DNA from: an uncultured Nitrososphaerota archaeon
Lineage (GTDB): Archaea; Korarchaeota; Korarchaeia; Korarchaeales; Korarchaeaceae
DNA: 32,000 nucleotides
Direction of reading: 5' to 3'
Assembly: GCA_964480775.1 (NCBI GenBank)
Contig: CAYZRF010000021.1
Location: 456-32,455, forward strand
This document shows, piece by piece, positions 2,877 to 26,057 of this stretch. Made by a program: the position numbers and the translations under genes. A model generated the notes under the pieces. The model searched no databases. It saw nothing but the letters and a program-made list of their open reading frames with translations, and had not been told where the DNA came from. How positions within the stretch are numbered: position 1 is the first letter of the stretch; each line of letters starts with the position of its first letter.

Positions 2877-3190
2877 GGATCATCCTTCTATTTAATGGCT
2901 TTAAAATATCAACCTATGATTGGTTCTTAGGATCAGAGACTATATTCAATATTTTAAGGAGAATTCTAAAAAGCTTGCTTCTCGAAGTAGATAAAGGACT
3001 TCAATTCCTTAACAGAGTATTTACAGCTTTACTTCCAATTATATTCTTCATCTGGGTCCTGCTTTGGATCATGAACTTGGAGGAATTAAAAGGCCTTCAA
3101 AAATACATCAAGTGGTGGGTTCTATTCTGTTTTGTAATGATAAGCATATCTCAAGGGCTTTCTTTCCTAATAAATGCGAAAATCGACTGA
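2873..3190 (+). CDS. Hypothetical small membrane protein, last gene of the plus-strand operon (the track starts it at the TTG at 2855)
   Basis: The ATG at 2873 forms an ATGA overlap with the stop of the previous gene (2874-2876). Two hydrophobic segments are present (LLPIIFFIWVLLWI and WWVLFCFVMISISQGL). The 3' end overlaps the convergent peptidase ORF by about 80 nt, so one of the two ends may be over-extended. Confidence 0.45.
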   Translation: MRIILLFNGFKISTYDWFLGSETIFNILRRILKSLLLEVDKGLQFLNRVFTALLPIIFFIWVLLWIMNLEELKGLQKYIKWWVLFCFVMISISQGLSFLINAKID

Positions 3191-3581
3191 GCTTTAGGTT
3201 TTTTATCAACTTTGGAAAGAGAACAATTGTAAAAGAAAACAAAAAATAGTAGGAATGGAAATACCCCCTTCCTCTACTCAAACCAATGATGCAAGCAATA
3301 AACAAGATTTTTCCAAGGTCAAAGGAGGAAATAAGAGGGGAAATAGCAATAATGAACTTACAATCTCCGCCTCCAAAGCCAACGCCGTATAATGACAAAG
3401 CAAAAGGAATAGCAGCAAATATTCTAATGAAGACAGAAAAATGTGAATTTCTTAATAAAGAAAAGATGGAATTTAGAGAAAATAGGAATATATTCAATCT
3501 ATTAGGTATCTTGCCTGTCTTGACATCTATCAGAGAACTCAACAATGCTTCCAACATGGCTATAGCCATCATGAGCATCAT
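3108..3581 (-). CDS. Short prepilin peptidase, A24 aspartic protease family, TadV/CpaA-like (no methyltransferase domain)
   Basis: Both catalytic Asp motifs are present in a polytopic 157-aa protein: LIDVKTGKIPNRL and GVGFGGGDCKFII (GxGD type). Confidence 0.8.
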   Translation of the reverse strand: MMLMMAIAMLEALLSSLIDVKTGKIPNRLNIFLFSLNSIFSLLRNSHFSVFIRIFAAIPFALSLYGVGFGGGDCKFIIAISPLISSFDLGKILFIACIIGLSRGRGYFHSYYFLFSFTIVLFPKLIKNLKLSRFSHLLGKKALEICLSLQNRIEPTT

Positions 3582-3582
3582 A

Positions 3583-4158
3583 TCACCCGAATAAATTGCT
3601 GAGTAAGAAAGTTGTCATCAGAAAAGGTATTGAATAGTACATTAGCCACTTTAGGCCCCTTTCCACTTCTTCCGCAATAAATACTGTAAAAGCAGCTCCG
3701 ATTAATCCAAAAGACACGAAATTGCTGTGAGGCTTTCCAAGAAGCATGTACCAAAGGAGTTCAGATATCTTCGAAAAGGCAGCTGACATGACTCCCAACA
3801 TCATGATCAAGAACCTTGCTAAATTCCTTCTATTTTTCAAGAGAGCTGCTCTCTCGGCCTCCAGCTCTTCTACAACTCTCACAATGGATGCAGTGTCCCT
3901 AAGCACTCTACCGATAAATTCTGGCTCTGCTCCAGAGGTCAATATTTCAGCTAACCAAGGACCATAATCTCCGAGAACGGTTTGGAGATTCACCATAATT
4001 TCTTCAATTGTTTTGTCGTCGGCAATAGCTTTCATAACGAGATTCTTGATTTCAGGGTCAAAGAGAGCAACTTGCCTCAGTGCAACGACTGGGTGTCGAT
4101 TAAGTTCCAGTGAATCGGCTAGTGCCTCTATTATCACCGTTTTCGAAGTCTTTTCCAT
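3583..4158 (-). CDS. Half-size T2SSF-domain platform protein (TadC/EpdK-like)
   Basis: 191 aa. A soluble helical N-terminal part is followed by hydrophobic helices (FLIMMLGVMSAAF, FGLIGAAFTVFIA, YYSIPFLMTTFLL). It sits directly downstream of a second half-size paralogue and the secretion ATPase. Starts and stops overlap. Confidence 0.6.
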   Translation of the reverse strand: MEKTSKTVIIEALADSLELNRHPVVALRQVALFDPEIKNLVMKAIADDKTIEEIMVNLQTVLGDYGPWLAEILTSGAEPEFIGRVLRDTASIVRVVEELEAERAALLKNRRNLARFLIMMLGVMSAAFSKISELLWYMLLGKPHSNFVSFGLIGAAFTVFIAEEVERGLKWLMYYSIPFLMTTFLLSNLFG

Positions 4159-4634
4159 AACTTAAACCTCCTAAATGAATATCTGAAGATTGAAACCACG
4201 AATAGACAAATAGAGGTTGGACCGATAAGAGAGGAAGGTATTGTACCGAGAGCAGAAGCGCTAGCCAATAGCATCATTGTTAAGAAAGCCATAGATAGTC
4301 GGATGGCCATTTTATGGTCAAGTTCCTTATTTTCAAGCTCTATTTCCACTCTCATGAAGTTCTTTAGGGTATTAACGATGTCTTGAGAGTTTGCCCCTTG
4401 AAGAAGGGATCTAATTGCCACAGCTAAAGGGCGATAACTCAATTGTTCACAAAATGCGTTTAATTTGCTCTGAAGAGTGTATCCTTCAACAGAGGAAGTA
4501 AGAAACATAGTTCTCATTTCTTTAGCGTAAGGTTCAAGTTTGGACCTAGCTACAAGTTCAACGGCCTTAATCGGACTCCAAGTGAGTCCTAGAGAAAACA
4601 GCTGAATGAACCTCATAACTTGCTTTCGATCCAT
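4134..4634 (-). CDS. Half-size T2SSF-domain platform protein (TadB/EpdJ-like)
   Basis: 166 aa with the same architecture as the neighbouring 191-aa protein. It overlaps the ATPase gene by 22 nt. Confidence 0.6.
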   Translation of the reverse strand: MDRKQVMRFIQLFSLGLTWSPIKAVELVARSKLEPYAKEMRTMFLTSSVEGYTLQSKLNAFCEQLSYRPLAVAIRSLLQGANSQDIVNTLKNFMRVEIELENKELDHKMAIRLSMAFLTMMLLASASALGTIPSSLIGPTSICLFVVSIFRYSFRRFKLWKRLRKR

Positions 4635-6046
4635 GAAGTAGCTCCCTTTATCCTCTTGATAACTTCTTCATTGGTCTTCAAGTTCAGCGAAGATCTGATC
4701 ATTGAGAGAAACCTCTCTGAGGGTTTTGGTTTTACCTCCTCCCAACCACTATCCTCATACCTGTAGAGTTTTTCGGCAACCCTAAATTCCATAAACAACG
4801 TTAAACACCCCATTAGAGCATCTTCCATTCCCCATCTAAACCATTTCCTCTCCAACGAGACAGGATCCTTAGCATGCGTTGTTGCGATCACCCTGAATCC
4901 GCTTTCTTTTGCTAGAGCAAAGGCTTTAGCGTGTTCTTCTGTAAGAATTTCCCCTAAAAAGACTAAATCAGGATTTCTATGCAAAAAGGTGGTCACCACA
5001 CTCTCCCTTTCACCAGGAAAGACGTAGGGATGATGTTTAAGGCCATAACGAGAAAAATCTTCAATTTCCCTTACTTCCTCGATGCTTATGATCCTCCATT
5101 CCCTAGCGGAATATGCTAGAAGAGAGTTAGCTAGTGTGGTTTTGCCTACGCCCGTTCTTCCAACAATCATGATTGGCTGTCTTTCGTACATGGCTTGTAC
5201 TAAATAGGCTGCAAGGCTTTCACTTATCGTCCCTAACGCTATTAAGCGCGACATTGGAAGTCTCGGCAAAGCAGAAAGATTTCTTGCGTCAAACGAAGGT
5301 TTTGATATTGGAGGAATGTCAACTCCAAGTCTAATCTTAGAGTCCTTAAAGGTAAACTCAATCTTTACGGTGGGTTGGTTGAGGTTAAGGGACCCATAGG
5401 GATGCAACTCCACTATCGTTCTAATCTTTTCAAACTCCCTCCTATCTAGGATTAAATTGCTAATTTCAACCCTACCTGCCTCGATGTGATCTATGTATAC
5501 CGGAGAACCCTCAAGGCCGTAGATCTCAGTTATATCATTGCCAGTTGCCAAGATAAGAATGGGCCAAGCCTTTGTAGATCTTACAGCTGCTTCTAAGATA
5601 ATGTCATCTCTTAAAATCTTATTAGAGCCGAGTATCTTTTTTATCTGGTTCTTTCGAAAATTTATAACGTCCCAAAGATCGATTTCCAATGAATCTTCTG
5701 GATAAACTCCTTCCATTAACCTAGAGAGACCTATTGCAAAGATCACACTTCCTGAACCGCAAATCCAGCTCTTGGGTATGAAATAAGTCCTTTTACCATT
5801 CATGCCAAGCATAGCACATCCGAGATCCTCTATTATTTCATCAAAATGTATCTTTGGGGTTTTTAGAGGAGGATAGGGTACTTCCTTTACAAACGCAATG
5901 TGCTTCTCGCTTCCAAGTGCTGCCAACAATCTTGCCTTGTCGTAGGTCTGATAAGGACTGAGAAAAAGATCTAAGGAAAACTCCTCTACCCACTTTATAG
6001 CTGCATTTACGAATCTATGATATGAGTTCTCCTCGTTAAGGCCCAA
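4613..6046 (-). CDS. Type IV filament secretion ATPase, CpaF/TadA/VirB11-like
   Basis: Motifs seen: Walker A IMIVGRTGVGKTTLANSLL, Asp box IISIEEVREIE, Walker B PDLVFLGEILTEEHA and His box FRVIATTHA. The N-terminal domain is about 290 aa. The TTG start is preceded by GGGGTGA. Confidence 0.85.
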   Translation of the reverse strand: MGLNEENSYHRFVNAAIKWVEEFSLDLFLSPYQTYDKARLLAALGSEKHIAFVKEVPYPPLKTPKIHFDEIIEDLGCAMLGMNGKRTYFIPKSWICGSGSVIFAIGLSRLMEGVYPEDSLEIDLWDVINFRKNQIKKILGSNKILRDDIILEAAVRSTKAWPILILATGNDITEIYGLEGSPVYIDHIEAGRVEISNLILDRREFEKIRTIVELHPYGSLNLNQPTVKIEFTFKDSKIRLGVDIPPISKPSFDARNLSALPRLPMSRLIALGTISESLAAYLVQAMYERQPIMIVGRTGVGKTTLANSLLAYSAREWRIISIEEVREIEDFSRYGLKHHPYVFPGERESVVTTFLHRNPDLVFLGEILTEEHAKAFALAKESGFRVIATTHAKDPVSLERKWFRWGMEDALMGCLTLFMEFRVAEKLYRYEDSGWEEVKPKPSERFLSMIRSSLNLKTNEEVIKRIKGATSWIESKL

Positions 6047-6055
6047 CTACTTGGT

Positions 6056-6337
6056 TCACCCCGTGGTGAGGTTGCCTCTGGCTAAATTCTCACTTTCTGA
6101 GCCCCAGAGGCTGCTAAGATGTTCGCTTAACCAATCAATGAAATCCGAAAATTTCTCTTCAGTAAGATCCGGTAGATTCCACAAGAACTCCAAAGCGTTT
6201 GCTACAGGGTTTACAACAAGAGCGAAGAAAGCAGCTATGGTGGCAGCAATCAAAAGAGCAGTTTCTGTTGTCTGAGTTAAACCAGATTCATCCTCTAAAA
6301 AACCCTTGATGAATCTTTTAATTTTCTTAAACAGCAT
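6056..6337 (-). CDS. Flp-type prepilin-like protein (93 aa from the internal ATG at 6337; the track extends it to 6415)
   Basis: A GGAGGTGA SD at 6342-6349 lies 4 nt upstream of the ATG at 6337. The sequence MLFKKIKRFIKGFLEDESG|LTQTTETALLIAATIAAFFALVV resembles the bacterial Flp leader and cleavage motif (F-L-x-D-E-x-G then T/E-containing hydrophobic helix). The gene sits immediately upstream of the CpaF-like ATPase. Confidence 0.7.
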   Translation of the reverse strand: MLFKKIKRFIKGFLEDESGLTQTTETALLIAATIAAFFALVVNPVANALEFLWNLPDLTEEKFSDFIDWLSEHLSSLWGSESENLARGNLTTG

Positions 6338-6609
6338 TTTCACCTCCCAGAGGGGGAAAGCTTGGAAAGGGTATTTAAGACGTCTCTTAGCAGAATACAT
6401 TGTTCTTGCAATCATTATTGGGCGTTTATGCTACTAAACACGTTGTTTTACTGATATCACTCATCAGAAAAACATAGGATATATTCAAGAGTAACAGGGT
6501 AGATATCCAAAGTTTTGCACTTAATTTATCATTTATTATCCCATCAAAAGGTTAATCTAGGAGGGGATTAGGACTAAAAGGATTCCTTTCTTCAAACTTT
6601 CTCATCAAC

Positions 6610-7770
6610 TCATCCAAAGCCTTCCAATACCAGAAGCATCCTATGGGCATCGGTTCTGGTAGCTTCAGAAGGGTTAATTGCTGCCCATATCAGTCTCTTT
6701 ATCCCTTCTCCTTGAGGATCGCTAATTGAGCGAAGTTCATGCGGCCTTACTTCTAGAGATTTAGAAATAAGCCTAATAAACCAAGGAAATAGGGCCAAGA
6801 TACAATTCTTAATGTCACCTGAATTTAAGAGATGTCTCGCTGCTCTAATTTCTTTAGATCCCTCTCTTCTTAACTTACTAACTAGTAAACAAAAAGAAAG
6901 ATCTCTCAACGCAATTCCCAAAAAACCTATGGAGGAAATCAAAAAGAGAAAGGTGTTGAAGCACCCAGTTAAGACGGTGAATAGAGCAGATAAGATCAGC
7001 CTCTTTTTTGCTAATTGCTTCGATGTCTTAATTAGATCAAAAACATCTAAATTTTCTACTTCTTTGCTTGGAATAGTTAGACGGCTTGATAACTTAAAAA
7101 CCAAAAAAGGGCTGAGAAATAGGGCAAAAAAAGATAAATTTGTCTTCAAACGATAGATTAATGCAAAAACAGTAGAAGCTATGTTTAAACTAAATGCTAT
7201 GTGGGAGAGTCTTATTTCTCCCTGGTAGCTCATATAACTAAGTAGAGGAATGCCAATAATTGATGAAAGTAGAAAATAGAAATTTGGAAAAGAAAAACTA
7301 ACGACATTGAAGTCCCCCAAGAAAACTGCTATAGAAAATGTAACAGAACTAACTAGGGCCGAAATTGAAAGGTATTTTAGGAACGTAGGGAAGTTCTTTC
7401 TCTTCCCTATCTTCCGAGCTAGCAATAGGCTAACTGAATCACTGAAACCATACAACGAAGTCCATCCATACAGGAGCGCATGAATTGTTGATATAGAATT
7501 ATCCAAATTCACAAAGGCTGGCAGATATAGAAACATCAGTACACCAGATATTCCAAGGCTTGTAAGACTTTGGAGATAAGAACATGCTCCTAGCATGGCC
7601 CCTAGAACACAAACGAGAAATAAACCTCCAAGATCGTCATAGGACACTTTTATCTGCCAAGCTAGACTATCCCCTATGCTTACTTCTCTTTTAAGTGCGC
7701 AAAAGTAGAGAGAGATTAACAGCACACCGTAAAGAATAGTTAAGAGATACAGGGCCTTATTTGGGTTCAA
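6610..7770 (-). CDS. 386-aa polytopic membrane protein of unknown family with a soluble C-terminal tail
   Basis: About 9-10 hydrophobic segments by eye. The C-terminal region of about 90 aa is hydrophilic (LRREGSKEIRAARHLLNSGD...EATRTDAHRMLLVLEGFG). Its TTG start lies inside the last codons of the upstream ParA-like gene (14-nt overlap). Confidence 0.6.
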   Translation of the reverse strand: MNPNKALYLLTILYGVLLISLYFCALKREVSIGDSLAWQIKVSYDDLGGLFLVCVLGAMLGACSYLQSLTSLGISGVLMFLYLPAFVNLDNSISTIHALLYGWTSLYGFSDSVSLLLARKIGKRKNFPTFLKYLSISALVSSVTFSIAVFLGDFNVVSFSFPNFYFLLSSIIGIPLLSYMSYQGEIRLSHIAFSLNIASTVFALIYRLKTNLSFFALFLSPFLVFKLSSRLTIPSKEVENLDVFDLIKTSKQLAKKRLILSALFTVLTGCFNTFLFLISSIGFLGIALRDLSFCLLVSKLRREGSKEIRAARHLLNSGDIKNCILALFPWFIRLISKSLEVRPHELRSISDPQGEGIKRLIWAAINPSEATRTDAHRMLLVLEGFG

Positions 7771-9118
7771 TGAAATCCCTTCCCATGCCTTTGAGTTTTA
7801 GAAATGATAGTGCAAGATCCAAGAACATTCTATACTCTTGCGATAAGGATGAAATATCTAATTCCTGCCTAGCTGTCAAAGAGCTAGCTGTTTTCTCATC
7901 AAGACCCGCCAAAAGAAGTGCTTCCTTTAGATTTTTCCTCGTTATGAATGCTTCCATTCCATCCGAGAACCTAAGTCTAACCTTTCTTCTAAAGAAAGGG
8001 AATAAATCAATGTGAAAACTAGAAGATTCTATCTCTCTGTAAATATCTTTAGGAACTGGAACCTCTTTGGCCTGAACAATTCCCTTTATAGCTTCTAGTC
8101 GTGGATTGGTTTCTTCCAACAAATCACTGTACTGATTTGATAAATAACCCTGTCCCGACGCGCCTAAGTCAATAGTTGGAACTTGATTATCAAAATTTCT
8201 TACAAAATGAAAGTCCTTACGAAATATCTTGATTAAATGCTTGGCCACACTCCTTTCTTTATAATCAATATCACCGTTGAAACCTTCAATTAGGGAGTGA
8301 TAGAAAGTTGCCTCATGCATTCTTGAAAGTGAAATTGAACAACTTTGAATGCATCGAGAAAACGACTCATCAAAGGGCAATAAATAAGCAGGGACATTCC
8401 AATAAGTTTTTACTAGCTCTTGCAGTTCAGTTGATTGTAAATTATGCCCATATTTGTTTATTATGACAAAAGGAGTCGAGAGATTGTTAATATCTAAAGA
8501 AAAAAGGTGTCTTTTTGTTTGAAGAATGGAATTTTTGTCTGGAAGCAAGACTGGGATTAGCAAACTGACCCATCTTGAGAGAGCCTTAAGCAGAACCCTT
8601 GCTGAGTAGTCCGATGATGGAAAATCTACTATGAGGAACTCAACACCAATCTCGCGAATATATTCCTCTAAAGATCTTAGTCTAAGCAAAAGAAGATCAA
8701 TTGGTTCGTACAACAGCGTCGAAACATCATCGCTTCCAGCAGGAATTACTTTAAGCTTAATGAGATCAGAAAGTTTGCGCCTGATACTCGAGTCTTCGAG
8801 TGAAATCAACGGATCATATACTACTTCCTCAGGGAATTTATTCCCAAGTAAAACATCGTGAAGACCATGAAATCCCTCATTTCCAAGGAATAAGTACGTT
8901 AGATCGGCGTTATGTAGATTAGCATCCATAACCGCAGCCATCTTACCCTCTTCTTCCATTAGATATGACATTATGAAGGATAGAGCCATGCTAACCGAGG
9001 TCTTACCAACCCCTTCGGTGCCAAAGAAACCTACTTTTAGCATTAACCCATCAATATGATGAACGCCTGTCTCAAAGACCCTATTTAAGGAGATCTTGCC
9101 AGCGCAGTTTTCGGACAA
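7757..9118 (-). CDS. ParA/MinD-superfamily ATPase, TadZ/CpaE-like, with a long C-terminal extension
   Basis: A Walker A-like motif VGFFGTEGVGKTSVSMAL is followed by AAVMDANLHNADLTYLFLG, which matches the ParA/MinD layout. The signature lysine of the KGG deviant Walker A is absent (TEG). The maximal ORF overlaps the moaA stop by 34 nt. An alternative start is the ATG at 9043 (MLKVGFFG). Confidence 0.65.
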   Translation of the reverse strand: MSENCAGKISLNRVFETGVHHIDGLMLKVGFFGTEGVGKTSVSMALSFIMSYLMEEEGKMAAVMDANLHNADLTYLFLGNEGFHGLHDVLLGNKFPEEVVYDPLISLEDSSIRRKLSDLIKLKVIPAGSDDVSTLLYEPIDLLLLRLRSLEEYIREIGVEFLIVDFPSSDYSARVLLKALSRWVSLLIPVLLPDKNSILQTKRHLFSLDINNLSTPFVIINKYGHNLQSTELQELVKTYWNVPAYLLPFDESFSRCIQSCSISLSRMHEATFYHSLIEGFNGDIDYKERSVAKHLIKIFRKDFHFVRNFDNQVPTIDLGASGQGYLSNQYSDLLEETNPRLEAIKGIVQAKEVPVPKDIYREIESSSFHIDLFPFFRRKVRLRFSDGMEAFITRKNLKEALLLAGLDEKTASSLTARQELDISSLSQEYRMFLDLALSFLKLKGMGRDFIEPK

Positions 9119-16756: not shown

Positions 16757-17038
16757 ATGTTAAGGAGCAAGGTTTTAGAGGCAATAAAAGAGTTTAACGA
16801 ATTTAGAAGTCCAGAGGCAACAGCAAACTCGTTTTAATTAAAGATAATAGGATTATCGTTAGGATGAATGGAACCTATTGTAGAACATGTGGCCTCTATG
16901 ATTACTTTGAGGATCTTTCATGGAAAATCAAGGGATTACTTGAAAGCTAACGTAAAGATTCTGTCGACGAGAAGAATAGATCATTTCTCCTATGAAATCA
17001 TATATGAGGTGGAATCTCTTAGTAAAAGATCTAAATGA
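16757..17038 (+). pseudogene. Small CxxC protein gene interrupted by two compensating frameshifts (or two homopolymer sequencing errors)
   Basis: Three segments read as one coherent protein of about 93 aa. Frame A 16757-16825 gives MLRSKVLEAIKEFNEFRSPEATA. The -1 frame 16825-16947 gives KLVLIKDNRIIVRMNGTYCRTCGLYDYFEDLSWKIKGLLES. Frame A resumes at 16946-17038 with ANVKILSTRRIDHFSYEIIYEVESLSKRSK. Both switches fall at AAA runs (16825-16827 and 16943-16945). An alternative is an intact 56-aa ORF at 16868-17038. Confidence 0.4.
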
Positions 17039-18629
17039 GAAGCATCACCGCAAACGCAAGCAGAGAGAATATGAAAATCTCTCTAAAGGACGAGGTAAAG
17101 TGTCCTGTTCTAACAAGCCCCAAGGTTCCTCCCATCACTAACGTCTGAACAAAGGCTTGCATCATAATTCCTTCTCTGATTCTCTCTGCTTCATGAGGTG
17201 CGAGAAGAGGGATGTTTAGTATGTTCACTAACATGGCATAGGAACCTATAACTAGCATGAAAGAAAACATTGCAGTAAAGTAATTTCCCATTTTCTCGCC
17301 CTCCGTTTCGATCCAGAGTTCCCTCAACCTAACGGCAAATTCTGAAATTGATGAAAAAGCCTCCTTAAGATCGGCTCCAGCCTCCAAAGCGGTCATAATA
17401 AGCAAAGTTGACATTCTCGAAACGCTTAGCTTTTGCCTCTCAGCCATCCTCTTTAGAATTTCAGTATAAGGAAGTTTCAGTCCAGCCCAAGCCTTGACCC
17501 TGTTGGCGAAATCCTTCAAGGATTTGTATGTTATCTTCATGTATGTTATAGCGTCGCTAAAAGACCTTCCACTCCTTAGTTCAGAGAAGAGATCTTGAAG
17601 GAAAAGTGGGAAGTCAAAAGTCTCGCTTCTCAGCCTTTTTTCCTCCTTAAATATTTGCAAGAAGCCAGCTAAAGCCCCAAGGGAGGTAGAGATGGCTAAT
17701 CTTTGCCACAGATTGAGAGAAAGAATTGGAATCGGGGATTTAATCAGCTTTACCAAAATTCGTGGGGGTAACTTATGAATTAGAACTGTAAAAATAAAAT
17801 ATACAGCAAAGAAAACGGCAATAAAAGATAACCAGGCTTTTATGACGGTTCTTTTCTTAAAATAGAAGTACCTAGGGGCTAGAATCTTAAACAACAATAC
17901 GAAGAAAGGAGATGGGAGTACTGAAGTCATAAGGACAAGGTTGCTCATTCCTCCTCCTCCGAATCCAGAGACCAAAGACTGAAACGTGAACATCAACATC
18001 AACACAAATGGGAGGGCGGTGGACGTCAGAGTATAAACGATTAGGATCATCATCAGTCTTTCCATGCTACTTCTTACGTCCATCATGGTTTTCTCTACTG
18101 ACTCATCAAGTTCCAGCTTTAGCATTTCATCTATGGCTTCTCCTCTAGTGAAGTAGTAATCGTGCAGTCTCGAGTAGATTCTTTTCCATACGCCACTAGG
18201 ACATAGCCTGATGTTTGCCTCAAGCCCTTCTATTGTTCCAGCAGCTAACATTCTAGCTGATGCTGCTTGAAAATACTTTCTCACGTCAGTATCCTCTGCT
18301 ATGTTACTAATCGCCTTGAATGAAGAGCCTAAAGATTTGCCCACCTTTTGTAACATCCAGAGAGTAGCTAGATAAGCCCAGATATCCTTTTCAAGCTTGC
18401 TAGCTATATTCAGATAGGATAGAAAAGGGGTAAATAGCATTAACAGTGATGGAAAGATCACTATGAACATAAGACGTACAGGATCCCTCATATAGCCAGT
18501 ACGATAAAGAGCAGCAGCTATAGCCATCATAACGCCTCCAACGGAGGCGATTCTAAAGATAAACTCCTTCGGATCTTGGTCTGGTATCCCTGCTTTTATG
18601 AAGAACTCTTCATCGAAGAAGAGTACCAC
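17031..18629 (-). CDS. Full-length two-domain type IV filament platform protein (FlaJ/TadC/PilC-like)
   Basis: 532-aa polytopic protein with two repeated soluble helical modules, each followed by transmembrane (TM) helices. Its GTG start overlaps the ATPase stop by 1 nt (TAGTG). Confidence 0.75.
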   Translation of the reverse strand: MVLFFDEEFFIKAGIPDQDPKEFIFRIASVGGVMMAIAAALYRTGYMRDPVRLMFIVIFPSLLMLFTPFLSYLNIASKLEKDIWAYLATLWMLQKVGKSLGSSFKAISNIAEDTDVRKYFQAASARMLAAGTIEGLEANIRLCPSGVWKRIYSRLHDYYFTRGEAIDEMLKLELDESVEKTMMDVRSSMERLMMILIVYTLTSTALPFVLMLMFTFQSLVSGFGGGGMSNLVLMTSVLPSPFFVLLFKILAPRYFYFKKRTVIKAWLSFIAVFFAVYFIFTVLIHKLPPRILVKLIKSPIPILSLNLWQRLAISTSLGALAGFLQIFKEEKRLRSETFDFPLFLQDLFSELRSGRSFSDAITYMKITYKSLKDFANRVKAWAGLKLPYTEILKRMAERQKLSVSRMSTLLIMTALEAGADLKEAFSSISEFAVRLRELWIETEGEKMGNYFTAMFSFMLVIGSYAMLVNILNIPLLAPHEAERIREGIMMQAFVQTLVMGGTLGLVRTGHFTSSFREIFIFSLLAFAVMLLI

Positions 18630-20044
18630 TAAGCTCCCCTCCTAGCCCTTTCAACCCGCCTTCTTAGGTCTGCCACTTTCTCCTGATACTCTCTAACTAT
18701 CGTTGATCTTGGAACTCCTTCTTTTGCAGCGATTTCAATGAATATTTGGCTATTCTTTATTGGATCGCCTAAAAGCTCCCTACCCCTCTTCCTAACAAAG
18801 ATGTCTCTTAGAATAACGTCGTCGGTTGTTGAATCATAGCTCAATTCAGCTATCCTCACAACCCCCCTAAAGTTTCCTTCTTTCCTAAGCAGCGCTGCCA
18901 CCTTAAAATCAGCTATCTGCTCGTTTGTGAGATTGATGGGATCACCTCTAAGCCTCGCTAAGACTCCCTCTATGACGCTTGCATGGAATGTCGTGAAGCT
19001 GGTGTGTCCAACGTGTATGAACTGAACGAGCAATCTGACCTCGGCTCCCCTCGACTCTCCGACGACTACGTAATCGGGTCTCATCCTGAGCACGTCTCTC
19101 AGCAAATCGGGAATCTCCATTCCCTTGACTCCCATTCCTGGTGGTTGACCTATGAGAGAGGTCCAATTCTTGTGTTCAGGAAGGTATATTTCAGGGGTAT
19201 CCTCGACCGTGACGATATGAGCGTGCTTTGGAAGGAGTGAGAGAAGGGCATTGAGGAAGGTTGTCTTCCCTGAGCCAGTTTCACCAACTATAAACCCTGA
19301 AATTCCATGTTCGGCCAGCAACCACAAATATGCAGCCGCTTCTACTGAAACGGCTCCCCAAGAGATTAGTTGTTCAATCCTCGGTCTTACAACAAACTTC
19401 CTTATGGTAAAGGTAGTTCCACCTTCGCTGACCGCAGGTCCATAAAGGGCGTGAACCCTAGATCCATCTGGTAGTTTTCCCTCTAGCCTAGGAACAGCAA
19501 GCGACACCTGCTTTCCTACTCTTTCCGCTAGTTTGAGCACGATTTGTCTGGCTTCTTCCTCTGTTAACTCTATGTTTGTCTCTAACCAAGTCCCTTTCCC
19601 AGCTAGGTAAACAAAAAGCTTTCTACCCCCTCTCGCTGGTAAAGTCACATCTTCTACATAAGGATCCTTCATAATGGGATCGAGTTTCCCCAAACCCTCT
19701 ATATCTCTTCTCAAATAGAATATAATAGAATTTAGTAAATCTTCATCATATTTCTTCTTGAATTCCTTTAGAGTTCTCTTTGCTGCCCACTCATAAAGTT
19801 TGGTAAGCTTGTTTAGATCCTCAAAACTTATCCTAGAAAGAACGTAATCCTTTGCTTTCTCAAGTATTTCTTTATCTGGCATTGGGGGCTCTATAACAAT
19901 GTATTTATCACCCTTGATACCCCTCCATGCAATTCCTTCAACCAGCTCAATGACTTCTTTTAGATCTTTAAGCTCAAGTTTCTTCCTCTTTTCCACAAGC
20001 GCCTGCTTTTCAGGCGTCGCTACCTGTTTCATGTGAAGGTGCAC
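18629..20044 (-). CDS. Archaeal type IV filament assembly ATPase (FlaI/PilB/GspE family); the likely start is the ATG at 20032
   Basis: Motifs seen: Walker A IVGETGSGKTTFLNALL, Asp box IVTVEDTPEI, Walker B RPDYVVVGESRGAE and His box GHTSFTTFHA. A TAGGTG SD lies about 10 nt upstream of the ATG at 20032. Confidence 0.9.
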   Translation of the reverse strand: MHLHMKQVATPEKQALVEKRKKLELKDLKEVIELVEGIAWRGIKGDKYIVIEPPMPDKEILEKAKDYVLSRISFEDLNKLTKLYEWAAKRTLKEFKKKYDEDLLNSIIFYLRRDIEGLGKLDPIMKDPYVEDVTLPARGGRKLFVYLAGKGTWLETNIELTEEEARQIVLKLAERVGKQVSLAVPRLEGKLPDGSRVHALYGPAVSEGGTTFTIRKFVVRPRIEQLISWGAVSVEAAAYLWLLAEHGISGFIVGETGSGKTTFLNALLSLLPKHAHIVTVEDTPEIYLPEHKNWTSLIGQPPGMGVKGMEIPDLLRDVLRMRPDYVVVGESRGAEVRLLVQFIHVGHTSFTTFHASVIEGVLARLRGDPINLTNEQIADFKVAALLRKEGNFRGVVRIAELSYDSTTDDVILRDIFVRKRGRELLGDPIKNSQIFIEIAAKEGVPRSTIVREYQEKVADLRRRVERARRGA

Positions 20045-20335: not shown

Positions 20336-20785
20336 CTACCCTCCCCTGTAGAGGTATTCGGTCTGGGTGCCACCAGGACCATAGACTATTATAGAGTAAC
20401 TCTGTGTAGCACTGTAGTTACCTAAGTTTACAGTAAGCTCTGCTACTCCATTTACTTCTAAAACGTCATCGGAACCGCTAACCGCGCCAGCGAGATTGCT
20501 TACATCAAGCTTCTGGTTGTCGATAAAGACTTGCCAAGCGGCAGTACTTCCCGCGCCTGAAATATCATTGGGCCCTAAGTTCTTTACGTATATTATGCCA
20601 TTACTTGATCCCATTCCTGATACTGAAAGTACGGCCAGCGTTGTCTGCCCACCAACGGCCGAAGTCCTTCCTAAGGCGCCAAAGATGTAGCTTCCAATTG
20701 GACTAAAGATTAGTAGGGCTAATGCCACTCCTATTACTAGAATTATAACCTCGACGGCAACTCTCGATATTCCTGCTCTTTTCAT
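20336..20785 (-). CDS. Type IV pilin-like protein with a class III signal peptide (pilin paralogue 1)
   Basis: The ATG at 20785 has an AGGTG SD about 7 nt upstream (the track uses the GTG at 20794). The N-terminus is MKRAG|ISRVAVEVIILVIGVALALLIF. The core shares YVKNLGPNDI and WQVFIDN with the 24504-24974 protein. The gene has its own promoter and terminator. Confidence 0.75.
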   Translation of the reverse strand: MKRAGISRVAVEVIILVIGVALALLIFSPIGSYIFGALGRTSAVGGQTTLAVLSVSGMGSSNGIIYVKNLGPNDISGAGSTAAWQVFIDNQKLDVSNLAGAVSGSDDVLEVNGVAELTVNLGNYSATQSYSIIVYGPGGTQTEYLYRGG

Positions 20786-20835
20786 ATCCCACACCTTCTA
20801 TTCTTTTGTTGACCATGTAGTATACTAATGGAGAG

Positions 20836-20844
20836 TATAAAAAT
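20836..20844 (-). promoter_or_regulatory. TATA box candidate for pilin paralogue 1 (minus-strand ATTTTTATA, followed by CTCTC)
   Basis: This AT-rich octamer resembles the archaeal TATA consensus. It lies about 50-60 nt upstream of the ATG at 20785. The core is almost identical to the one at 25001-25008. Confidence 0.45.
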
Positions 20845-20850
20845 CCTACC

Positions 20851-20890
20851 ATGAAAATCCATGAAAAACCATGAAATACTGTGAAATCTT
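20851..20890. repeat. Four exactly phased 10-bp tandem repeats (atgaaaatcc / atgaaaaacc / atgaaatact / gtgaaatctt)
   Basis: Read directly. The units start at 20851, 20861, 20871 and 20881, immediately upstream of the TATA candidate. The core is TGAAA(T) on the plus strand, which is (A)TTTCA on the coding strand. Confidence 0.8.
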
Positions 20891-20981
20891 TTTCTAAACA
20901 CATCAAACTTTAAAATTAAAGCATTAGAGCGTTTTTCCTTTTATCCAAGAATTTGGAATTTTTTCAAATTAGAAACTGTTT

Positions 20982-21422
20982 TTATCCCGAGGGTTCAGTT
21001 CCTACCAAGTTTGAGACTATGACGAAGTAGGACCCAATGGTCTCATTATAAAACAAGAGGAAGATGATCTCTCCATTATAGACTTTGGGAGGGGCTTTAA
21101 CAGGAACAGTGGAGAAAAAGGTAGTATTAGCCATAACAGAATGCGTACCTGCAACTAGCCTAACGACCACACTGCTATTGTAGACCATAATCTCAGCAAC
21201 TTTGTCACCCTCTAACTCTATGTTAACCACTCTTTGACCAGAGAGAGCCCCACCCTCCTTCATTCTGGACATAAAAGATATCTCAGACGCCACAACTTCT
21301 GCTATAGTTTGAGCCTCCTTTCTCAAATTCAATTCGAAGAAATATGGCCTCAAAAACAAGAAGAACGAAGCTAGGATAAGGCCTATTAGTGCAAGAGCAA
21401 CCCAGATGACCGCTCTCCTCAT
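20982..21422 (-). CDS. Hypothetical N-terminally anchored protein, last gene of the six-gene pilin-like operon
   Basis: The N-terminus is MRRAVIWVALALIGLILASFFLFL. Sequons NSS, NTT and NET are present. An SD GGGGAGGC lies inside the end of the upstream gene. Confidence 0.6.
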   Translation of the reverse strand: MRRAVIWVALALIGLILASFFLFLRPYFFELNLRKEAQTIAEVVASEISFMSRMKEGGALSGQRVVNIELEGDKVAEIMVYNSSVVVRLVAGTHSVMANTTFFSTVPVKAPPKVYNGEIIFLLFYNETIGSYFVIVSNLVGTEPSG

Positions 21423-21426
21423 GATA

Positions 21427-21918
21427 TCAGCCTCCCCAATTTATCCGTATGTATCCAACATGCGAGGTCGTGTTGTAGAAATAGTAGTCGATCGTAACAT
21501 AGTTCTGTCTACCAGACGACGCGAGTCCAGTCATGGTAAGATTCCATCCTCTCTTAAGGTAAACTGAGAGAATTATTTTGTTCGTAGTTGGCTGAAGGGT
21601 TACGTATGTGATCGAAAGATTTGAAAGGGTAACATTCCTCTCATATCGTGGGGGATTCATTACAACTACGTTTACAGAATTGTTCCCATAGATTACAACT
21701 ATATCGTCAGGTAATACTATGGATAGTGTTAGTGAGGCCCCCACTCCTGATGCCACAACCCCTTCAATGCTATTTGCAAGAGAATAAGCTATTCTTTTAC
21801 CTGCCTCCAGACGCTGTTCGGCCTGTCTTGTTCTTATGTATGGATACGTTAACATTAGGCCAGCCACTATTATAGCAGTTGCCAGAACTAGGGCCACCAC
21901 CGATTCTACTACTTCCAT
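21427..21918 (-). CDS. Pilin-like or anchored protein (163 aa)
   Basis: The N-terminus is MEVVESVVALVLATAIIVAGLMLTY. Five N-x-S/T sequons are present. It is translationally coupled on both sides. Confidence 0.65.
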   Translation of the reverse strand: MEVVESVVALVLATAIIVAGLMLTYPYIRTRQAEQRLEAGKRIAYSLANSIEGVVASGVGASLTLSIVLPDDIVVIYGNNSVNVVVMNPPRYERNVTLSNLSITYVTLQPTTNKIILSVYLKRGWNLTMTGLASSGRQNYVTIDYYFYNTTSHVGYIRINWGG

Positions 21919-21921
21919 GAT

Positions 21922-22962
21922 CTATCCCCTAGGTGCAACGGCCTCAACCTCTATTCTCACCGTGTAGGGGAATATGAAGAATGGTATATTGGCTCTACTT
22001 GATGGATTTCCAACCATTAGAACCGAAGCATTATAAGGACCTTGAGCGAAAATGATGTCATCAATATCCATTGGCAGACCAATGCTCGTTATGTTTTCTC
22101 TAATGCTCGTCACATTCATTACGTTGCAACTTCTACCAAAGATCGTATCTCCAACATAAAAGTGATATGCGGGCTGTGCTGTTTCATTGACCAGCAGCTG
22201 ATTCTCCCCTCTCCCTGTGGGATCTCCATTATCTAAGTCAATCCACATCTCTCTCGTAGCGAAGTTCTCTCCGTTCGGTCCAGTGTAGTCAACGAATGCA
22301 TGATATTTTCCTGCGGGAGCACCTTCTTGAATTCCTACATCTATTGTAATCTTACAAATTCCATTAATTAGCTGGGCTCCTTCTGTTGTAATCAAAGTAG
22401 TATCAGCATAAAGAGTTACCTGGGCATTTCCTCCCTGAACAGGAAGACCGTCTTTTGTATATGCTACGATATAAAATCGTGCACTCTCTCCTTCCCAGTG
22501 ATTACCATCTATTTGTCTTTTGTAGTATGGCTCTCTGTAAGAGAGAACATACCAATGTATTTGGGTGTCATTGCTCCCAGGCATCACTGGAAATGTAACA
22601 AGCACCACATCTCCACGCGGTCTAGATGCGTTTGAGCAATTTATGTAAAACTTTGTCTCTGATCCATTCAGGTAAACTAAATACATGCTGACATTGAACC
22701 AAATGCCCGTTCTATTCCAAGCAAGCGTACAAATCTCTCCAACCTTGTTCTTAAACTCTCTTAGTGTCATATTTCCATTCATCACAAAGTCTCTGGAATA
22801 TATGTCACCTATGACGCTGGCTATGCTCCTTGCTAGAACTCTTTCAGAAGCCGTCTCTTGTTTAGTCACCACCCTAGTGAAGGAGACAGCAGTGGCTATA
22901 GCTATCGTTACTAGGACCACGGCCAGTATGACTTCAATAGGTTCACTAACCATTTCATCCAC
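21922..22962 (-). CDS. Large pilin-like or anchored extracellular protein (346 aa; probable start is the ATG at 22953)
   Basis: The N-terminus is MVSEPIEVILAVVLVTIAIATAVSF. It carries 11 N-x-S/T sequons. A GGAGGTGGA SD lies inside the last codons of the upstream gene. Confidence 0.7.
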   Translation of the reverse strand: MDEMVSEPIEVILAVVLVTIAIATAVSFTRVVTKQETASERVLARSIASVIGDIYSRDFVMNGNMTLREFKNKVGEICTLAWNRTGIWFNVSMYLVYLNGSETKFYINCSNASRPRGDVVLVTFPVMPGSNDTQIHWYVLSYREPYYKRQIDGNHWEGESARFYIVAYTKDGLPVQGGNAQVTLYADTTLITTEGAQLINGICKITIDVGIQEGAPAGKYHAFVDYTGPNGENFATREMWIDLDNGDPTGRGENQLLVNETAQPAYHFYVGDTIFGRSCNVMNVTSIRENITSIGLPMDIDDIIFAQGPYNASVLMVGNPSSRANIPFFIFPYTVRIEVEAVAPRG

Positions 22963-23446
22963 CTCCTGACACTATTACCCTAACCTCGCACATTGTTCCG
23001 TTTGATAGCCGAGCTAGAGCTCTTCTTACACCTCTAACCTGGCCTATTATGTTTGAACCAACTATCAAGTTAGGAGAGGGAGGGAAAGAGTGTGAAGTCT
23101 CGTTGTAATAATAGAAAGCAATTCTAACATCAAACTCAGTTAGAGAAAGGCCTGCTTTTATCATACTATAATTCAAGGATAACAAGAGATTGAGTTTGTT
23201 AAGGTCTATTACATATGGATATACAAGTTCACCAGCATTACCCATTTCAGAATAAGCCAAACCTATTGAGGGGGGCGAAACAGACCAATTTCCTGGATTT
23301 TCCAATAGCTGCCTGACAACTAGATCTGCCTTATGCTCAATTCCCTCGCTTATTTCTGCACCAAGCGTTCTAAGTTGCCAAATCCCATAAAAGCCATAAA
23401 TCGATAGTATTAGCGTTGATACGATGAAAGCTATTATTTGCTTCAC
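22955..23446 (-). CDS. N-terminally anchored protein (163 aa)
   Basis: The GTG start has GAGGGGGG upstream. The N-terminus is MKQIIAFIVSTLILSIYGFYGIW. Four sequons are present. Confidence 0.65.
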   Translation of the reverse strand: MKQIIAFIVSTLILSIYGFYGIWQLRTLGAEISEGIEHKADLVVRQLLENPGNWSVSPPSIGLAYSEMGNAGELVYPYVIDLNKLNLLLSLNYSMIKAGLSLTEFDVRIAFYYYNETSHSFPPSPNLIVGSNIIGQVRGVRRALARLSNGTMCEVRVIVSGGG

Positions 23447-23507
23447 TTTTCTAAGCCCCCCTCTATTTCTCCTTAGCTAATGTTAGCCCATTCTCCAGCT
23501 GGTAGGC

Positions 23508-24500
23508 TCAGTCAGGTGGCTCTGGGGGAGGTGGTAGTTCTGGCGGCTCAATGCCGAATAGATCTGCACCCATTGATCTCCAAATCCAGTAGTACTCCAC
23601 TCCCTCCTGATACCCTTCATAACTGATCCGATATGCCTCGTATGGATCGTCGCAGTAGTAAACATCTATAGTTGCCTCAGAACCAGGCCTGTCTTGTGGA
23701 TTTATGATTATTTGATCGGTCTCCATGCCAGATTTCTTGTACCTTATGTTAAAATATGCAATTCCACCGAGACCTGTTAGACCTGGCGTACCTCCAAGAA
23801 CAACCGTATCAGAAGCAAAGGGACCAAATATTCTTTTTATCTGGAAGGGCTCCAACGATATGTATTGACCCCAGAGAATCCTCCCATCTGTGTCAAAATC
23901 GAACTTGATCTCATAACTATTGCCTTCAAGGTTGAAAATTATTCCATGGAAGGTAATTACCTGTCTCCTTCCACCTATGAACGGTAAGGAACTCTGCATC
24001 CAGAAGCACCATTTAGAGGGTAATATCCCGAACGGAGGCAAACCTTCTCCTCCTTCGTCGCCTCCTCCGCCCCCTCCACCACCGCCACCTCTGCCTTCAC
24101 CTATCCTGTATTGAATGTCAGTTAGGTTGGTGCCTAGTATGCCAGTGAAATAGGTATCCCCTTTAGCAAGGGTGTAAATTACGATAACGTTTTCTCCGCC
24201 ACCACCAATCAAAGGCACGGTAATGTTGTGATACCACAGCTCTACCTGCTTAGTTAACATCTTCTCGCTAAGATACTTAAGGTGGTTATCTATGAACGAA
24301 GCCTGAACATCAGAACCCCCAGGCAGCTCGGCTGCCGTATTGACGACTGTTGTCATGTAGGCTAGGGTGTCCACAAAATCCTCATGCACTCCTTCCTCAA
24401 GTTTTACTTCCGGCGGGCTCATGTAAGTAGCCAGCGTCATTATGAGCACTGTTATTACGAAGCCTACCAGCAAGATCGTTCCTGCGCCTTTTCTATTCAT
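23508..24500 (-). CDS. Pilin-like protein (330 aa) with an internal 10-Gly run and a Pro-rich C-terminus
   Basis: The N-terminus is MNRKGAGTILLVGFVITVLIMTL. It contains GEGR-G10-DEGGEG (Gly codons at 24060-24089). The C-terminus is PPELPPPPEPPD. A GGAGGAGGA SD lies 6 nt upstream of the ATG at 24500. Confidence 0.7.
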   Translation of the reverse strand: MNRKGAGTILLVGFVITVLIMTLATYMSPPEVKLEEGVHEDFVDTLAYMTTVVNTAAELPGGSDVQASFIDNHLKYLSEKMLTKQVELWYHNITVPLIGGGGENVIVIYTLAKGDTYFTGILGTNLTDIQYRIGEGRGGGGGGGGGGDEGGEGLPPFGILPSKWCFWMQSSLPFIGGRRQVITFHGIIFNLEGNSYEIKFDFDTDGRILWGQYISLEPFQIKRIFGPFASDTVVLGGTPGLTGLGGIAYFNIRYKKSGMETDQIIINPQDRPGSEATIDVYYCDDPYEAYRISYEGYQEGVEYYWIWRSMGADLFGIEPPELPPPPEPPD

Positions 24501-24503
24501 ACT

Positions 24504-24974
24504 TTATCCTCCTCCTGGAGACCACCCAGCATAAGCAATCGTGGCTCGGGGACCAAAAACTTTGATCGTATGCGAAACATTAGCATTGATTGCCTCCGAG
24601 AGAGTTATATTAATGGATTCTCCAACCCTTAAAGATCCTGAAGCAGGATCTAGCGAACTTATAGTCTTGAACTCATCATCTATAAAAACCTGCCATTCCG
24701 AGGGACCAGAGAATTCAATGTCAGAAGGACCCAAGTTCTTCACATAAACCTTTGCATATGATCCCGCTGTTGCATTCCCAGGATCAAATGCCATTATCTG
24801 AATGTTTGATTTAGGGGTTCCGGCCTCAATTTTTCTGTAACTACCCCTAGTAGCCCCCAAAACCACTTGATAGACTAAGACGGCCAAGGCAATACCAAGT
24901 ACCATTAGTACAATGGCCGTAGTAACCTGAGAGACTCCTCTCCTTCTTTTGCGAAGAACTTGCTGGGTGGTCAT
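24504..24974 (-). CDS. Type IV pilin-like protein with a class III signal peptide (pilin paralogue 2), first gene of the operon
   Basis: The internal ATG at 24974 gives MTTQQVLRKRRRG|VSQVTTAIVLMVLGIALAVLVY. The track's longer version starts at 25034, upstream of the TATA candidate at 25001-25008. The protein shares YVKNLGPSDI and WQVFIDD with paralogue 1. Three sequons are present. Confidence 0.75.
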   Translation of the reverse strand: MTTQQVLRKRRRGVSQVTTAIVLMVLGIALAVLVYQVVLGATRGSYRKIEAGTPKSNIQIMAFDPGNATAGSYAKVYVKNLGPSDIEFSGPSEWQVFIDDEFKTISSLDPASGSLRVGESINITLSEAINANVSHTIKVFGPRATIAYAGWSPGGG

Positions 24975-25000: not shown

Positions 25001-25008
25001 ATAAAAAT
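25001..25008 (-). promoter_or_regulatory. TATA box candidate for the pilin operon (minus-strand ATTTTTAT, followed by TCTC)
   Basis: It lies about 27-34 nt upstream of the ATG at 24974, consistent with a leaderless or very short-leader mRNA. The core is nearly identical to the one at 20836-20844. Confidence 0.4.
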
Positions 25009-25046
25009 GCTTTTGTATGCTTAGAATTTCGCATATAACCACGCTT

Positions 25047-25101
25047 TGAAATGAAATGAAATAATAATGAAATATTAATGAAATTCAGTGAAATATGAAA
25101 T
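25047..25101. repeat. Seven copies of TGAAAT in 55 bp
   Basis: Read directly. Copies start at 25047, 25052, 25057, 25068, 25079, 25089 and 25096, with spacings of 5, 5, 11, 11, 10 and 7. The array lies upstream of the TATA candidate in the divergent pilin/peptidase intergenic region. Confidence 0.8.
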
Positions 25102-25319
25102 AAATATATAGCATTTAATTTAAAGTTTTTTCGAGATAGAAATAATTACTACTTCCTAATCCGTAGACAGATCATGGACTGAGAAGATAACAATAACAGG
25201 TGAAATAGTTGTTAGTTAAAAAATTTGAAACTTTTGCTTTCTCGCTGATACCCTTACTCCTTTCTGAGCACAAGATCTTTACTCCCAATTTATTAATTAT
25301 CGCTTGATACCTTGTCGAG

Positions 25320-26057
25320 TTGATGCCTAGAATAGAGCAAATTAGAATAACTGCCTCTTTATTAGTTCTCTTGATTGCAACCCTACAGGACATTAAAGAT
25401 AGAGAAGTTGATGATGTAATCTGGCTGGTTGGTCTCTCTATAGGAGGAATTTTAGATGCCTTCCTCTTGTTTTCCGCGACACCAACAACACAGGAAATTT
25501 TACAGTATGTGAGATTCTCCATTCCTTTTCTGTTTATTATACTGACTTCATGGCGCTTCAAGCTCATGGGAGGCGCCGATATACTTGCTTTCATCACTCT
25601 GGCGATACTTCAACCGAGTCATCCGCTAGGAAAGTGCATGTTTCCTCCGGCTTTCTGTACGATGCTGTACTCAAACTTTCTTATGCTTCTTGTTCCGTTT
25701 TCTTTTCTAATATGGAACGTGAGGCTTATACTAAAGGGAGAGAATATTTTTGATGGATTTAAAGAATCTTCTCTCAGAAAATTCATAGCAAGCCTTTTTG
25801 CAATAGCAATTCAAGCAGAAAGTGCTAAGAATTTCAAATTTTTCTCAGTGGCTCAGGAAGGGGGCTCCCCCGAGAAGAAATTTAGACTCGTCTCAGCACT
25901 CTCGATTCCAGAAACGAAAGAAGAACTGCCGAAGACAGAAGAACATCTAGTGTGGATCTGTCCTTCGATCCCCATGATTCCATTTATTCTAGCTGGGTAC
26001 GTGCTAACCATATTGATAGGGGACCCCGTGCTATTGTTGATAGAGATCTTCAAGTAG
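25320..26057 (+). CDS. Archaeal prepilin/preflagellin peptidase, FlaK/PibD type (A24 family); the probable start is the ATG at 25323
   Basis: Catalytic motifs TLQDIKDREVDDVIW and KLMGGADILAF are present in a polytopic protein. A hydrophilic insert (ESAKNFKFFSVAQEGGSPEKKFRL...) precedes the last TM helix. A TATA-like TTTATTAATTA lies about 30 nt upstream. Confidence 0.8.
   Translation: MMPRIEQIRITASLLVLLIATLQDIKDREVDDVIWLVGLSIGGILDAFLLFSATPTTQEILQYVRFSIPFLFIILTSWRFKLMGGADILAFITLAILQPSHPLGKCMFPPAFCTMLYSNFLMLLVPFSFLIWNVRLILKGENIFDGFKESSLRKFIASLFAIAIQAESAKNFKFFSVAQEGGSPEKKFRLVSALSIPETKEELPKTEEHLVWICPSIPMIPFILAGYVLTILIGDPVLLLIEIFK

Follow-up and report, generated by a model that had tools for sequence, protein, structure and literature searches.

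The window analysed here is a stretch of 32,000 nucleotides (G000:C21:456-32455) from an assembly, designated G000, of an uncultured hot-vent archaeon. The assembly holds 1,821,388 bases in 49 contigs, with 42% G+C, and is 90% complete. The minus strand carries a type IV pilus-like locus. Pilin gene 1 (20336..20785, minus strand) encodes 149 aa with a class III-type N-terminus and starts with an ATG at 20785. Downstream of it lie the genes of a secretion ATPase (18629-20044, minus strand) and then of a TadC/FlaJ-like platform protein (17031-18629, minus strand). Even a weak match to the archaellin family (PF01917) was limited to pilin gene 1 in G000, and nothing scored above the cut-off. On the other side of pilin gene 1, a spacer of 187 bp separates it from a six-gene unit (20982..24974, minus strand), which ends at 20982. 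This unit consists of pilin gene 2 (24504-24974, minus strand, ATG at 24974) and five pilin-like genes, each encoding an N-terminal hydrophobic helix. A prepilin peptidase gene (Peptidase_A24 and Arc_PepC_II; 25320..26057, plus strand) is divergent from pilin gene 2.

A search of all window ORFs for DNA-binding domains gave no match, so no regulator was located in the window. A second type IV filament-like cluster, with a Peptidase_A24 protein, a T2SSE-type ATPase and several unannotated ORFs, was found at 3108-9118 and carries no TTTC array. Orthologues of the secretion ATPase in two related genomes, G001 (contig C49, locus L014) and G002 (contig C7, locus L016), were matched in two to three pieces within frames of 1523 and 919 aa, which suggests intein insertions in these two proteins and not in that of G000.

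Repeat arrays at the two pilin promoters

Array 1 (20851..20886, minus strand) consists of four TTTCAY units with exact 10-bp spacing (10/10/10). Read on the gene strand, the units are TTTCAC, TTTCAT, TTTCAT and TTTCAT, with TTTC starting at 20886, 20876, 20866 and 20856. Counted from the first T of the TATA box TTTTTATA (20836..20843, minus strand), these starts are at -43/-33/-23/-13. The preliminary description had placed four repeats at 20851, 20861, 20871 and 20881 of the plus strand, 10 bp apart and directly upstream of the minus-strand TATA core. Coordinates and spacing were verified, and the gap between the end of the array and TTTTTATA was found to be 7 bp. These 7 bases (20844-20850) occupy the expected position of the BRE. 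The ATG of pilin gene 1 follows a GGTG and lies 58 nt past the first T of TTTTTATA. Orthologous promoters from three genera keep ATTTTTAT(A/T) 45-60 nt ahead of the start codon. A crude alignment of TATA-like boxes of G000 yielded no BRE consensus, and an argument from a weak BRE is therefore not possible.

Array 2 (25047..25101, minus strand) lies in the spacer shared by pilin gene 2 and the prepilin peptidase gene. The same core had been reported to recur in this interval, and seven TTTCA units were found there, spaced 7, 10, 11, 11, 5 and 5. The array adjoins a candidate TATA box, TTATATG (25032..25038, minus strand), and its proximal TTTC has the -13 position seen at pilin gene 1; relative to this box, TTTC starts at -13, -18, -23, -34, -45, -55 and -62. 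A second TATA-like box, TTTTTAT (25001..25007, minus strand), lies 33 nt ahead of the ATG of pilin gene 2 and is conserved; relative to it the starts run from -44 to -93. A distance of about 40 bp between array 2 and TTTTTAT had also been described. The related genome G003 has TTATTTG where G000 has TTATATG. Which of the two candidate boxes serves pilin gene 2 is ambiguous. If TTTTTAT is the reference, the units at -44, -54, -65, -76 and -86 lie 31, 41, 52, 63 and 73 bp upstream of the -13 position. These distances correspond to 2.95 to 6.95 turns at 10.5 bp per turn, indicating that the units share one helical face even with this box as the reference. In units of array 2 that are otherwise AT-only, an isolated C and the A following it are retained, which argues for base-specific reading and against a purely periodic A/T signal for histones.

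Both promoters are also preceded by a palindrome, RTTTC-N6-GAAAW, whose half-site ATTTC equals the array core. One copy (20961..20976) lies 133 bp upstream of the pilin gene 1 TATA box and another (25128..25143) lies 136 bp upstream of TTTTTAT. Only four non-coding matches to the palindrome were present in G000, and three of them are in the pilus locus (20961-20976, 25128-25143 and 16983-16998).

Genome-wide rarity, conservation and a third promoter family

The frequency of such arrays was estimated at several levels. With at most one mismatch, the three-unit pattern had 2 matches in the window versus 0.00 in 100 dinucleotide-preserving shuffles. Chains of at least three same-strand TTTCAY with gaps of at most 16 occurred twice in the whole G000 genome, namely as arrays 1 and 2. 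The density of TTTCAY itself in non-coding DNA exceeded that in coding DNA only 1.45-fold (2.40 versus 1.65 per kb). When Tandem Repeats Finder was run on the G000 genome, many chance arrays of two copies were returned in non-coding DNA, and at a period of 9-12 only arrays 1 and 2 reached 2.9 and 3.5 copies. The scan was extended to 43 species genomes of the phylum, 40 of them of the same class. The three-unit pattern was found only in G000 and in the orthologous promoter of G004, and reversed-pattern controls in the same scans gave 0 matches. It had been asked at the outset whether TGAAAT-type repeats are equally dense in most AT-rich spacers. They are not, as arrays 1 and 2 are unique in the genome, and the regulatory reading was not refuted on this ground.

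The core was also counted without the strict unit sequence. Phased TTTC chains (9-11 bp) of at least four units occurred three times in the non-coding DNA of G000: at the two pilin promoters and at G000:C12:45470-45504. Three-unit TTTC chains without a register constraint were at background level in G000, so that a regulon beyond arrays of at least four units is uncertain; accordingly, only these arrays and their orthologues were counted as members of the promoter class. When three phased units had to be followed by a TATA-like box 8-12 nt on, TTTC ranked first of the 256 tetramers, with 4 non-coding matches versus at most 2 for any other tetramer. The fourth of these matches precedes a gene of the UDP-glucose/GDP-mannose dehydrogenase family. 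No enrichment was seen for lone TTTCA sites at a set distance from a TATA box (5 matches versus 1-7 for control pentamers), and a wide regulon of single sites was rejected on this count. Elsewhere in the genome, three TTTCC units 10 and 11 bp apart (G000:C1:90462-90486) adjoin a TTTTTTAT box in the register of the arrays, at about -35/-25/-14, ahead of the gene of a 588-aa protein without a Pfam match above the cut-off.

The conservation of the arrays was then compared among the orthologous pilin gene 1 promoters of G000, G003, G004 and the metagenome contig L051, whose pilin is 71% identical. TTTC starts at -43/-33/-23/-13 from the TATA box in both G000 and L051. In G003 the starts are at -43, -33, -24 and -13, with two units drifted to TTTCC and TTTCT, and in G004 they are at -33/-23/-13, the -43 unit being absent. 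The unit positions of array 2 are identical in G000 and G003. In the four-lineage alignment, which has a mean column identity of 76%, invariant columns made up 18/30 of units 2-4, 11/14 of the BRE/TATA block and 9/48 of the 5′ UTR, where 4 of the 9 belong to the ribosome-binding GGTG. Because the array-bearing lineages are close kin, this conservation is partly shared ancestry. Two TTTC units are also present, at roughly the same position, in the more distant pilin promoter L053.

G002, a fourth species of the same genus, had no array at any of its three pilin promoters; the alignment shows a gap of about 27 bp in place of the array, and the promoter that is kept still looks working. Pilin gene 1 is tandemly duplicated in this genome (L016:9170-12052, G002:C7), with an ATPase fragment between the copies, and the promoters of both copies are near-identical and array-less. 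The palindrome ahead of pilin gene 1 is kept in G002, G003 and G004, and hence also in an array-less species. In G004 it has moved from -133 to -123, exactly 10 bp. Together with the one unit fewer, this shift indicates that the G004 promoter differs by one clean helical turn.

Variation within populations was also considered. None of the sequencing runs listed for the locus is an RNA run. Among the differences listed for population contigs of four runs there was no indel that would mark an array length variant, contigs being a kind of record that drops rare variants. A variant strain from an independent vent metagenome had listed differences at 20786-20833 and 20893-20906 and none listed at 20834-20892. 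This is suggestive of the array/TATA stretch 20834-20892 being spared, with seven further differences standing outside those listed.

The third array, G000:C12:45470-45504, precedes the gene of a secreted, sequon-rich protein (locus G000:C12:45470-47499; L092:3470-5503). This 247-residue surface protein starts with a signal or anchor segment, continues as a helical body and contains about 12 N-glycosylation sequons. At the orthologous promoters, TTTC is at -35/-25/-15 from TTAAAT in G002 and G004 and at -25/-15 in G001; when the TATA octamers are aligned, this register is one base off the pilin register. Paralogues with longer arrays were present in G000 (C1:69195), G002, G003 and G004, and G002 and G004 have a further array before the gene of a secreted protein with a Pro/Thr linker. 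Since G002 carries arrays at these other surface genes, the array has been lost at its pilin promoters and not elsewhere. Taken together, the sequence comparisons support a small, genus-wide promoter class for surface proteins.

Some further features of the surface-protein family were noted. The ORF in G000 ends at 247 aa, coding-looking Lys/Glu-rich sequence continues for about 280 nt, and the frames of the orthologues stay open for 340-380 aa; possible causes are a frameshift, a stop and an assembly error. A protein atlas search with the surface protein gave only sub-threshold leads. In a genome of another genus (L103, G014:C143), the equivalent operon, which encodes the surface protein and a membrane winged-helix protein, has a perfect GTTCCACT/AGTGGAAC inverted repeat adjoining the TATA box and no TTTC array. 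This inverted repeat lies about 60 nt ahead of the surface-protein gene.

A proposed cooperative regulatory array and competing explanations

How Korarchaeia regulate their genes is almost unknown, and outside Sulfolobus little has been learned about the control of archaeal type IV pili. We were particularly interested in what these arrays could do. The preliminary description had read the same-face repeats as a cooperative regulatory array, and this reading gained support from the uniqueness of the arrays in the genome, the TATA register in four lineages, the recurrence at unrelated surface-gene promoters and the ordinary predicted curvature of the DNA. On present sequence evidence, the repeats are probably bound cooperatively, on one face of the DNA, by a sequence-specific factor regulating surface-structure genes, a judgement held with some confidence and well short of certainty. 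Direct repeats at one-turn intervals, held in register with the TATA box at several promoters and in several species, fit a row of identical protomers, with the last of them next to TFB/TBP. In the proposed mechanism, a DNA-binding protein would recognise the core (A/T)TTTCA, and its protomers would bind cooperatively in a row along a single face of the helix, one protomer per turn. The protomer nearest the promoter would sit 13 bp upstream of the TATA box, beside TFB on the BRE, where it would most likely aid TFB/TBP recruitment, making the repeats an upstream activating array. In this manner a few further cell-surface genes could be brought under common control with both transcription units of a single type IV pilus machine.

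The direction of regulation depends mainly on the position of the units. Archaeal activators that recruit TFB/TBP usually have sites upstream of the BRE, whereas repressor sites usually overlap or follow the TATA box (PMC5512572). Activation is preferred here because the array units are upstream of the BRE, the usual place for an activator; given that a protein binds, we consider activation clearly the better choice over repression. Were the array instead a repressor operator, the cooperative row would spread over the BRE and the TATA box and silence the surface genes until released by a signal. The proximal unit is only 7 bp from the TATA box, and at the C12-type promoter TTTC is only 4 bp ahead of TTAAAT, which would suit such spreading. 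Moreover, cooperative filaments on tandem sites are a known mode of repression (MetJ, omega, AvtR). This explanation is nevertheless judged unlikely, because every unit is upstream of the BRE and the stretch over and beyond the TATA box and the start site, where most archaeal repressors bind (PMC5512572), is free of units, and because the closest precedents at filament promoters are activators. The array-less, working-looking promoter of G002 is decisive for neither activation nor repression.

Explanations that need no dedicated factor were given less weight. The arrays contain T3-T5 runs every 10 bp, alternating with GG in array 1, and a histone gene is present in G000; the periodic runs could cause bending or fix the place of an archaeal histone particle beside the promoter. 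Such a purely structural role is considered improbable. In an approximate wedge model, the predicted curvature of the arrays ranked at the 85th and 67th percentile among non-coding positions, and a phased A6 control scored about twice as high as the arrays. In addition, the opposite phase of array 2 is free of G/C, the bases of TTTC are conserved individually and not as W/S classes, and other tetramers form no comparable periodic tracts at promoters. Neutral replication slippage, which would have produced a short minisatellite in two promoters by coincidence, is the least probable of the explanations considered and is hardly credible. It would account for the three nearly identical 10-mers of array 1 and for a unit number of 3, 4 or 0 between species. 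It does not account for the presence of the core at two paralogous and further unrelated promoters in a fixed TATA register in several species, nor for the divergence of the unit flanks while TTTC stays. Such arrays are also lacking elsewhere in the non-coding DNA, and no length variant is listed in the population contigs. The repeats were also considered as RNA-level, terminator, iteron or small-ORF features, and all of these were rejected. As the arrays are upstream of TATA boxes and no co-directional gene lies upstream of array 2, a terminator or RNA-level role common to both arrays is unlikely.

As a separate observation, the single histone gene is preceded by about 900 bp without a long ORF (G000:C5:67441-68338), in which TTTCA/TGAAA is clustered in both orientations.

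Parallels with known systems and candidate reader proteins

Upstream sites at other archaeal filament promoters were compared with the arrays. In M. maripaludis, four 6-bp EarA sites immediately upstream of the archaellum promoter BRE are required for transcription (PMC5512572). Thermococcales have one to three neighbouring EarA sites, set at a constant distance from the BRE, and a leader of 30 nt at the first archaellin gene (PMC10665913). The arrays resemble these EarA boxes in being several short direct sites just upstream of the BRE/TATA region, at the first gene of a type IV filament operon, with a copy number that varies by species (1-3 in Thermococcales, 4 in M. maripaludis) and a leader of about 30 nt; an EarA-family gene is also encoded in G000. 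They differ in the core, which is TACATA or A(C/G)(C/G)TACA(T/C) for EarA and (A/T)TTTCA(Y), without TACA, here. Moreover, the target of EarA is the archaellum operon, whereas a pilus is concerned here in a lineage outside Euryarchaeota, the units described here are strictly one helical turn apart, and the presence of EarA does not track the arrays.

A second parallel is found in Sulfolobales, where the UV-induced ups-pilus promoters have an essential A(N)TTTC at -44 to -39, just upstream of the BRE (PMC5817253), an element on which Orc1-2 footprints (PMC6061795). Like the array units, this DNA-damage element of the ups/ced/tfb3 promoters is non-palindromic, contains TTTC and lies just upstream of the BRE at type IV pilus promoters, and G000 likewise has an Orc1/Cdc6 paralogue beside an initiator-type copy. 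If the TATA box starts near -31 relative to the predicted start site, the proximal TTTC at -13 from the TATA box is within about 2 bp of the Sulfolobus geometry. Every unit contains TTTC; an A two positions ahead of it was seen in the proximal unit of G000 and in G004, and not in most units, nor in L051 or G003. The Sulfolobus element is single-copy, whereas arrays and no wide single-site regulon were found here.

A third comparison concerns mini-ORB clusters, whose individually weak units are bound cooperatively by Orc1/Cdc6 when clustered (PMC1904270). Short repeated units are common to both, and the spacer before one orc1/cdc6 gene of G000 has four ATTTCA and an invariant CATTTCACGTC; the arrays differ in having no TTCC...GAA dyad. 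The preliminary description had stated that no described regulator has this motif. The statement has to be amended in that the A(N)TTTC/Orc1-2 element of Sulfolobales and the EarA sites are known parallels. The element may work like EarA-type or Orc1-2-type upstream sites, although its motif is not that of EarA and agrees with A(N)TTTC only in part.

Three proteins were considered as possible readers of the arrays. The first choice, which we put forward tentatively, is a membrane-bound winged-helix protein of 293 residues encoded directly downstream of the C12 surface-protein gene (G000:C12:46621-47499). Its signal peptide and ectodomain are followed by one TM helix and, in the last ~75 residues, by a cytoplasmic winged-helix tail (HTH_24/DUF7343), and its gene is in the same position behind the surface-protein gene in G002 and G004. 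Membrane-bound regulators of archaeal pilin genes are described or predicted (PMC6396743; PMC4858521). Compared by topology, the candidate resembles one-component regulators of the ArnR/ArnR1 type in being membrane-anchored with a cytoplasmic winged helix, and here the gene belongs to an array-bearing operon. It differs in that the signal peptide, the ectodomain and the TM helix precede a C-terminal wHTH, and in that the family is present in 37/40 genomes of the class, far wider than the arrays, so that its distribution does not single it out. If this protein were the reader, it would provide a compact archaeal case of transmembrane signalling straight to a promoter, and promoters would be tethered to the membrane if the sensor docks on the array.

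The second choice, ranked slightly lower and equally tentative, is an EarA-family protein (G000:C20:29407-29736; PF07381, 86 bits versus a cut-off of 22). The family is restricted to genera g1 and g2; it is present in G001 and G002 and as a fragment at a contig end in G003, and it was not detected in G004, a genome that is 78% complete. No archaellin (PF01917) above the cut-off was found in any of the 40 class genomes, and EarA must thus have some non-archaellum target here. If the EarA-family protein were the reader, EarA would be a general regulator of type IV filaments and not just the euryarchaeal archaellum regulator. Its gene overlaps that of a 368-aa protein with a weak winged-helix match (G000:C20:29407-30823, L062:1468-2884), and the two genes are probably co-transcribed. 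PDB sequence searches with the wHTH tail and the EarA homologue gave no matches.

An Orc1/Cdc6 paralogue is the third choice, regarded as doubtful. G000 has two orc1/cdc6 genes. The best match of the C4 product is Sso Orc1-1 (253 bits). For the C2 product, 1FNN (181 bits) ranks ahead of Sso Orc1-1 (125) and A. pernix ORC2 (115). We take the C4 copy to be of the initiator/Orc1-1 type and the C2 copy to be the paralogue, a provisional assignment to clades. Beyond these three, the reader could also be something else. None of the candidate factors correlates cleanly with the arrays in the genomes compared; G002 owns both the EarA-family and the membrane wHTH protein and has array-less pilin promoters. 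As a broader possibility, we tentatively envisage a small surface regulon, comprising the two pilin units, the glycoprotein family and perhaps glycan genes, which would be run by helically phased, TATA-locked TTTC arrays in a genus of Korarchaeia-like archaea and read by the EarA-family protein or by the membrane-spanning winged-helix sensor. The analysis provides a sharply defined cis-element (core, spacing and TATA register), a handful of surface-protein promoters and three candidate proteins. Binding can therefore be tested with recombinant proteins, and no culture of the organism is needed.

The spacer before the Orc1-1-type gene was inspected as well. Four ATTTCA were found in 122 bp, which has a probability of about 0.001 for that spacer alone, and the cluster ties for second-densest in the genome. 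Since by our estimate four ATTTCA in 250 bp are expected 2-4 times somewhere in the genome, the cluster is only a lead. The spacer itself is origin-like (G000:C4:24190-24520, L048:2632-2960). It contains a conserved GGAGTKGAAA, which is the canonical GGAGTGGAAAC in G003 and G001, and this element, the invariant CATTTCACGTC and other blocks are kept across five species.
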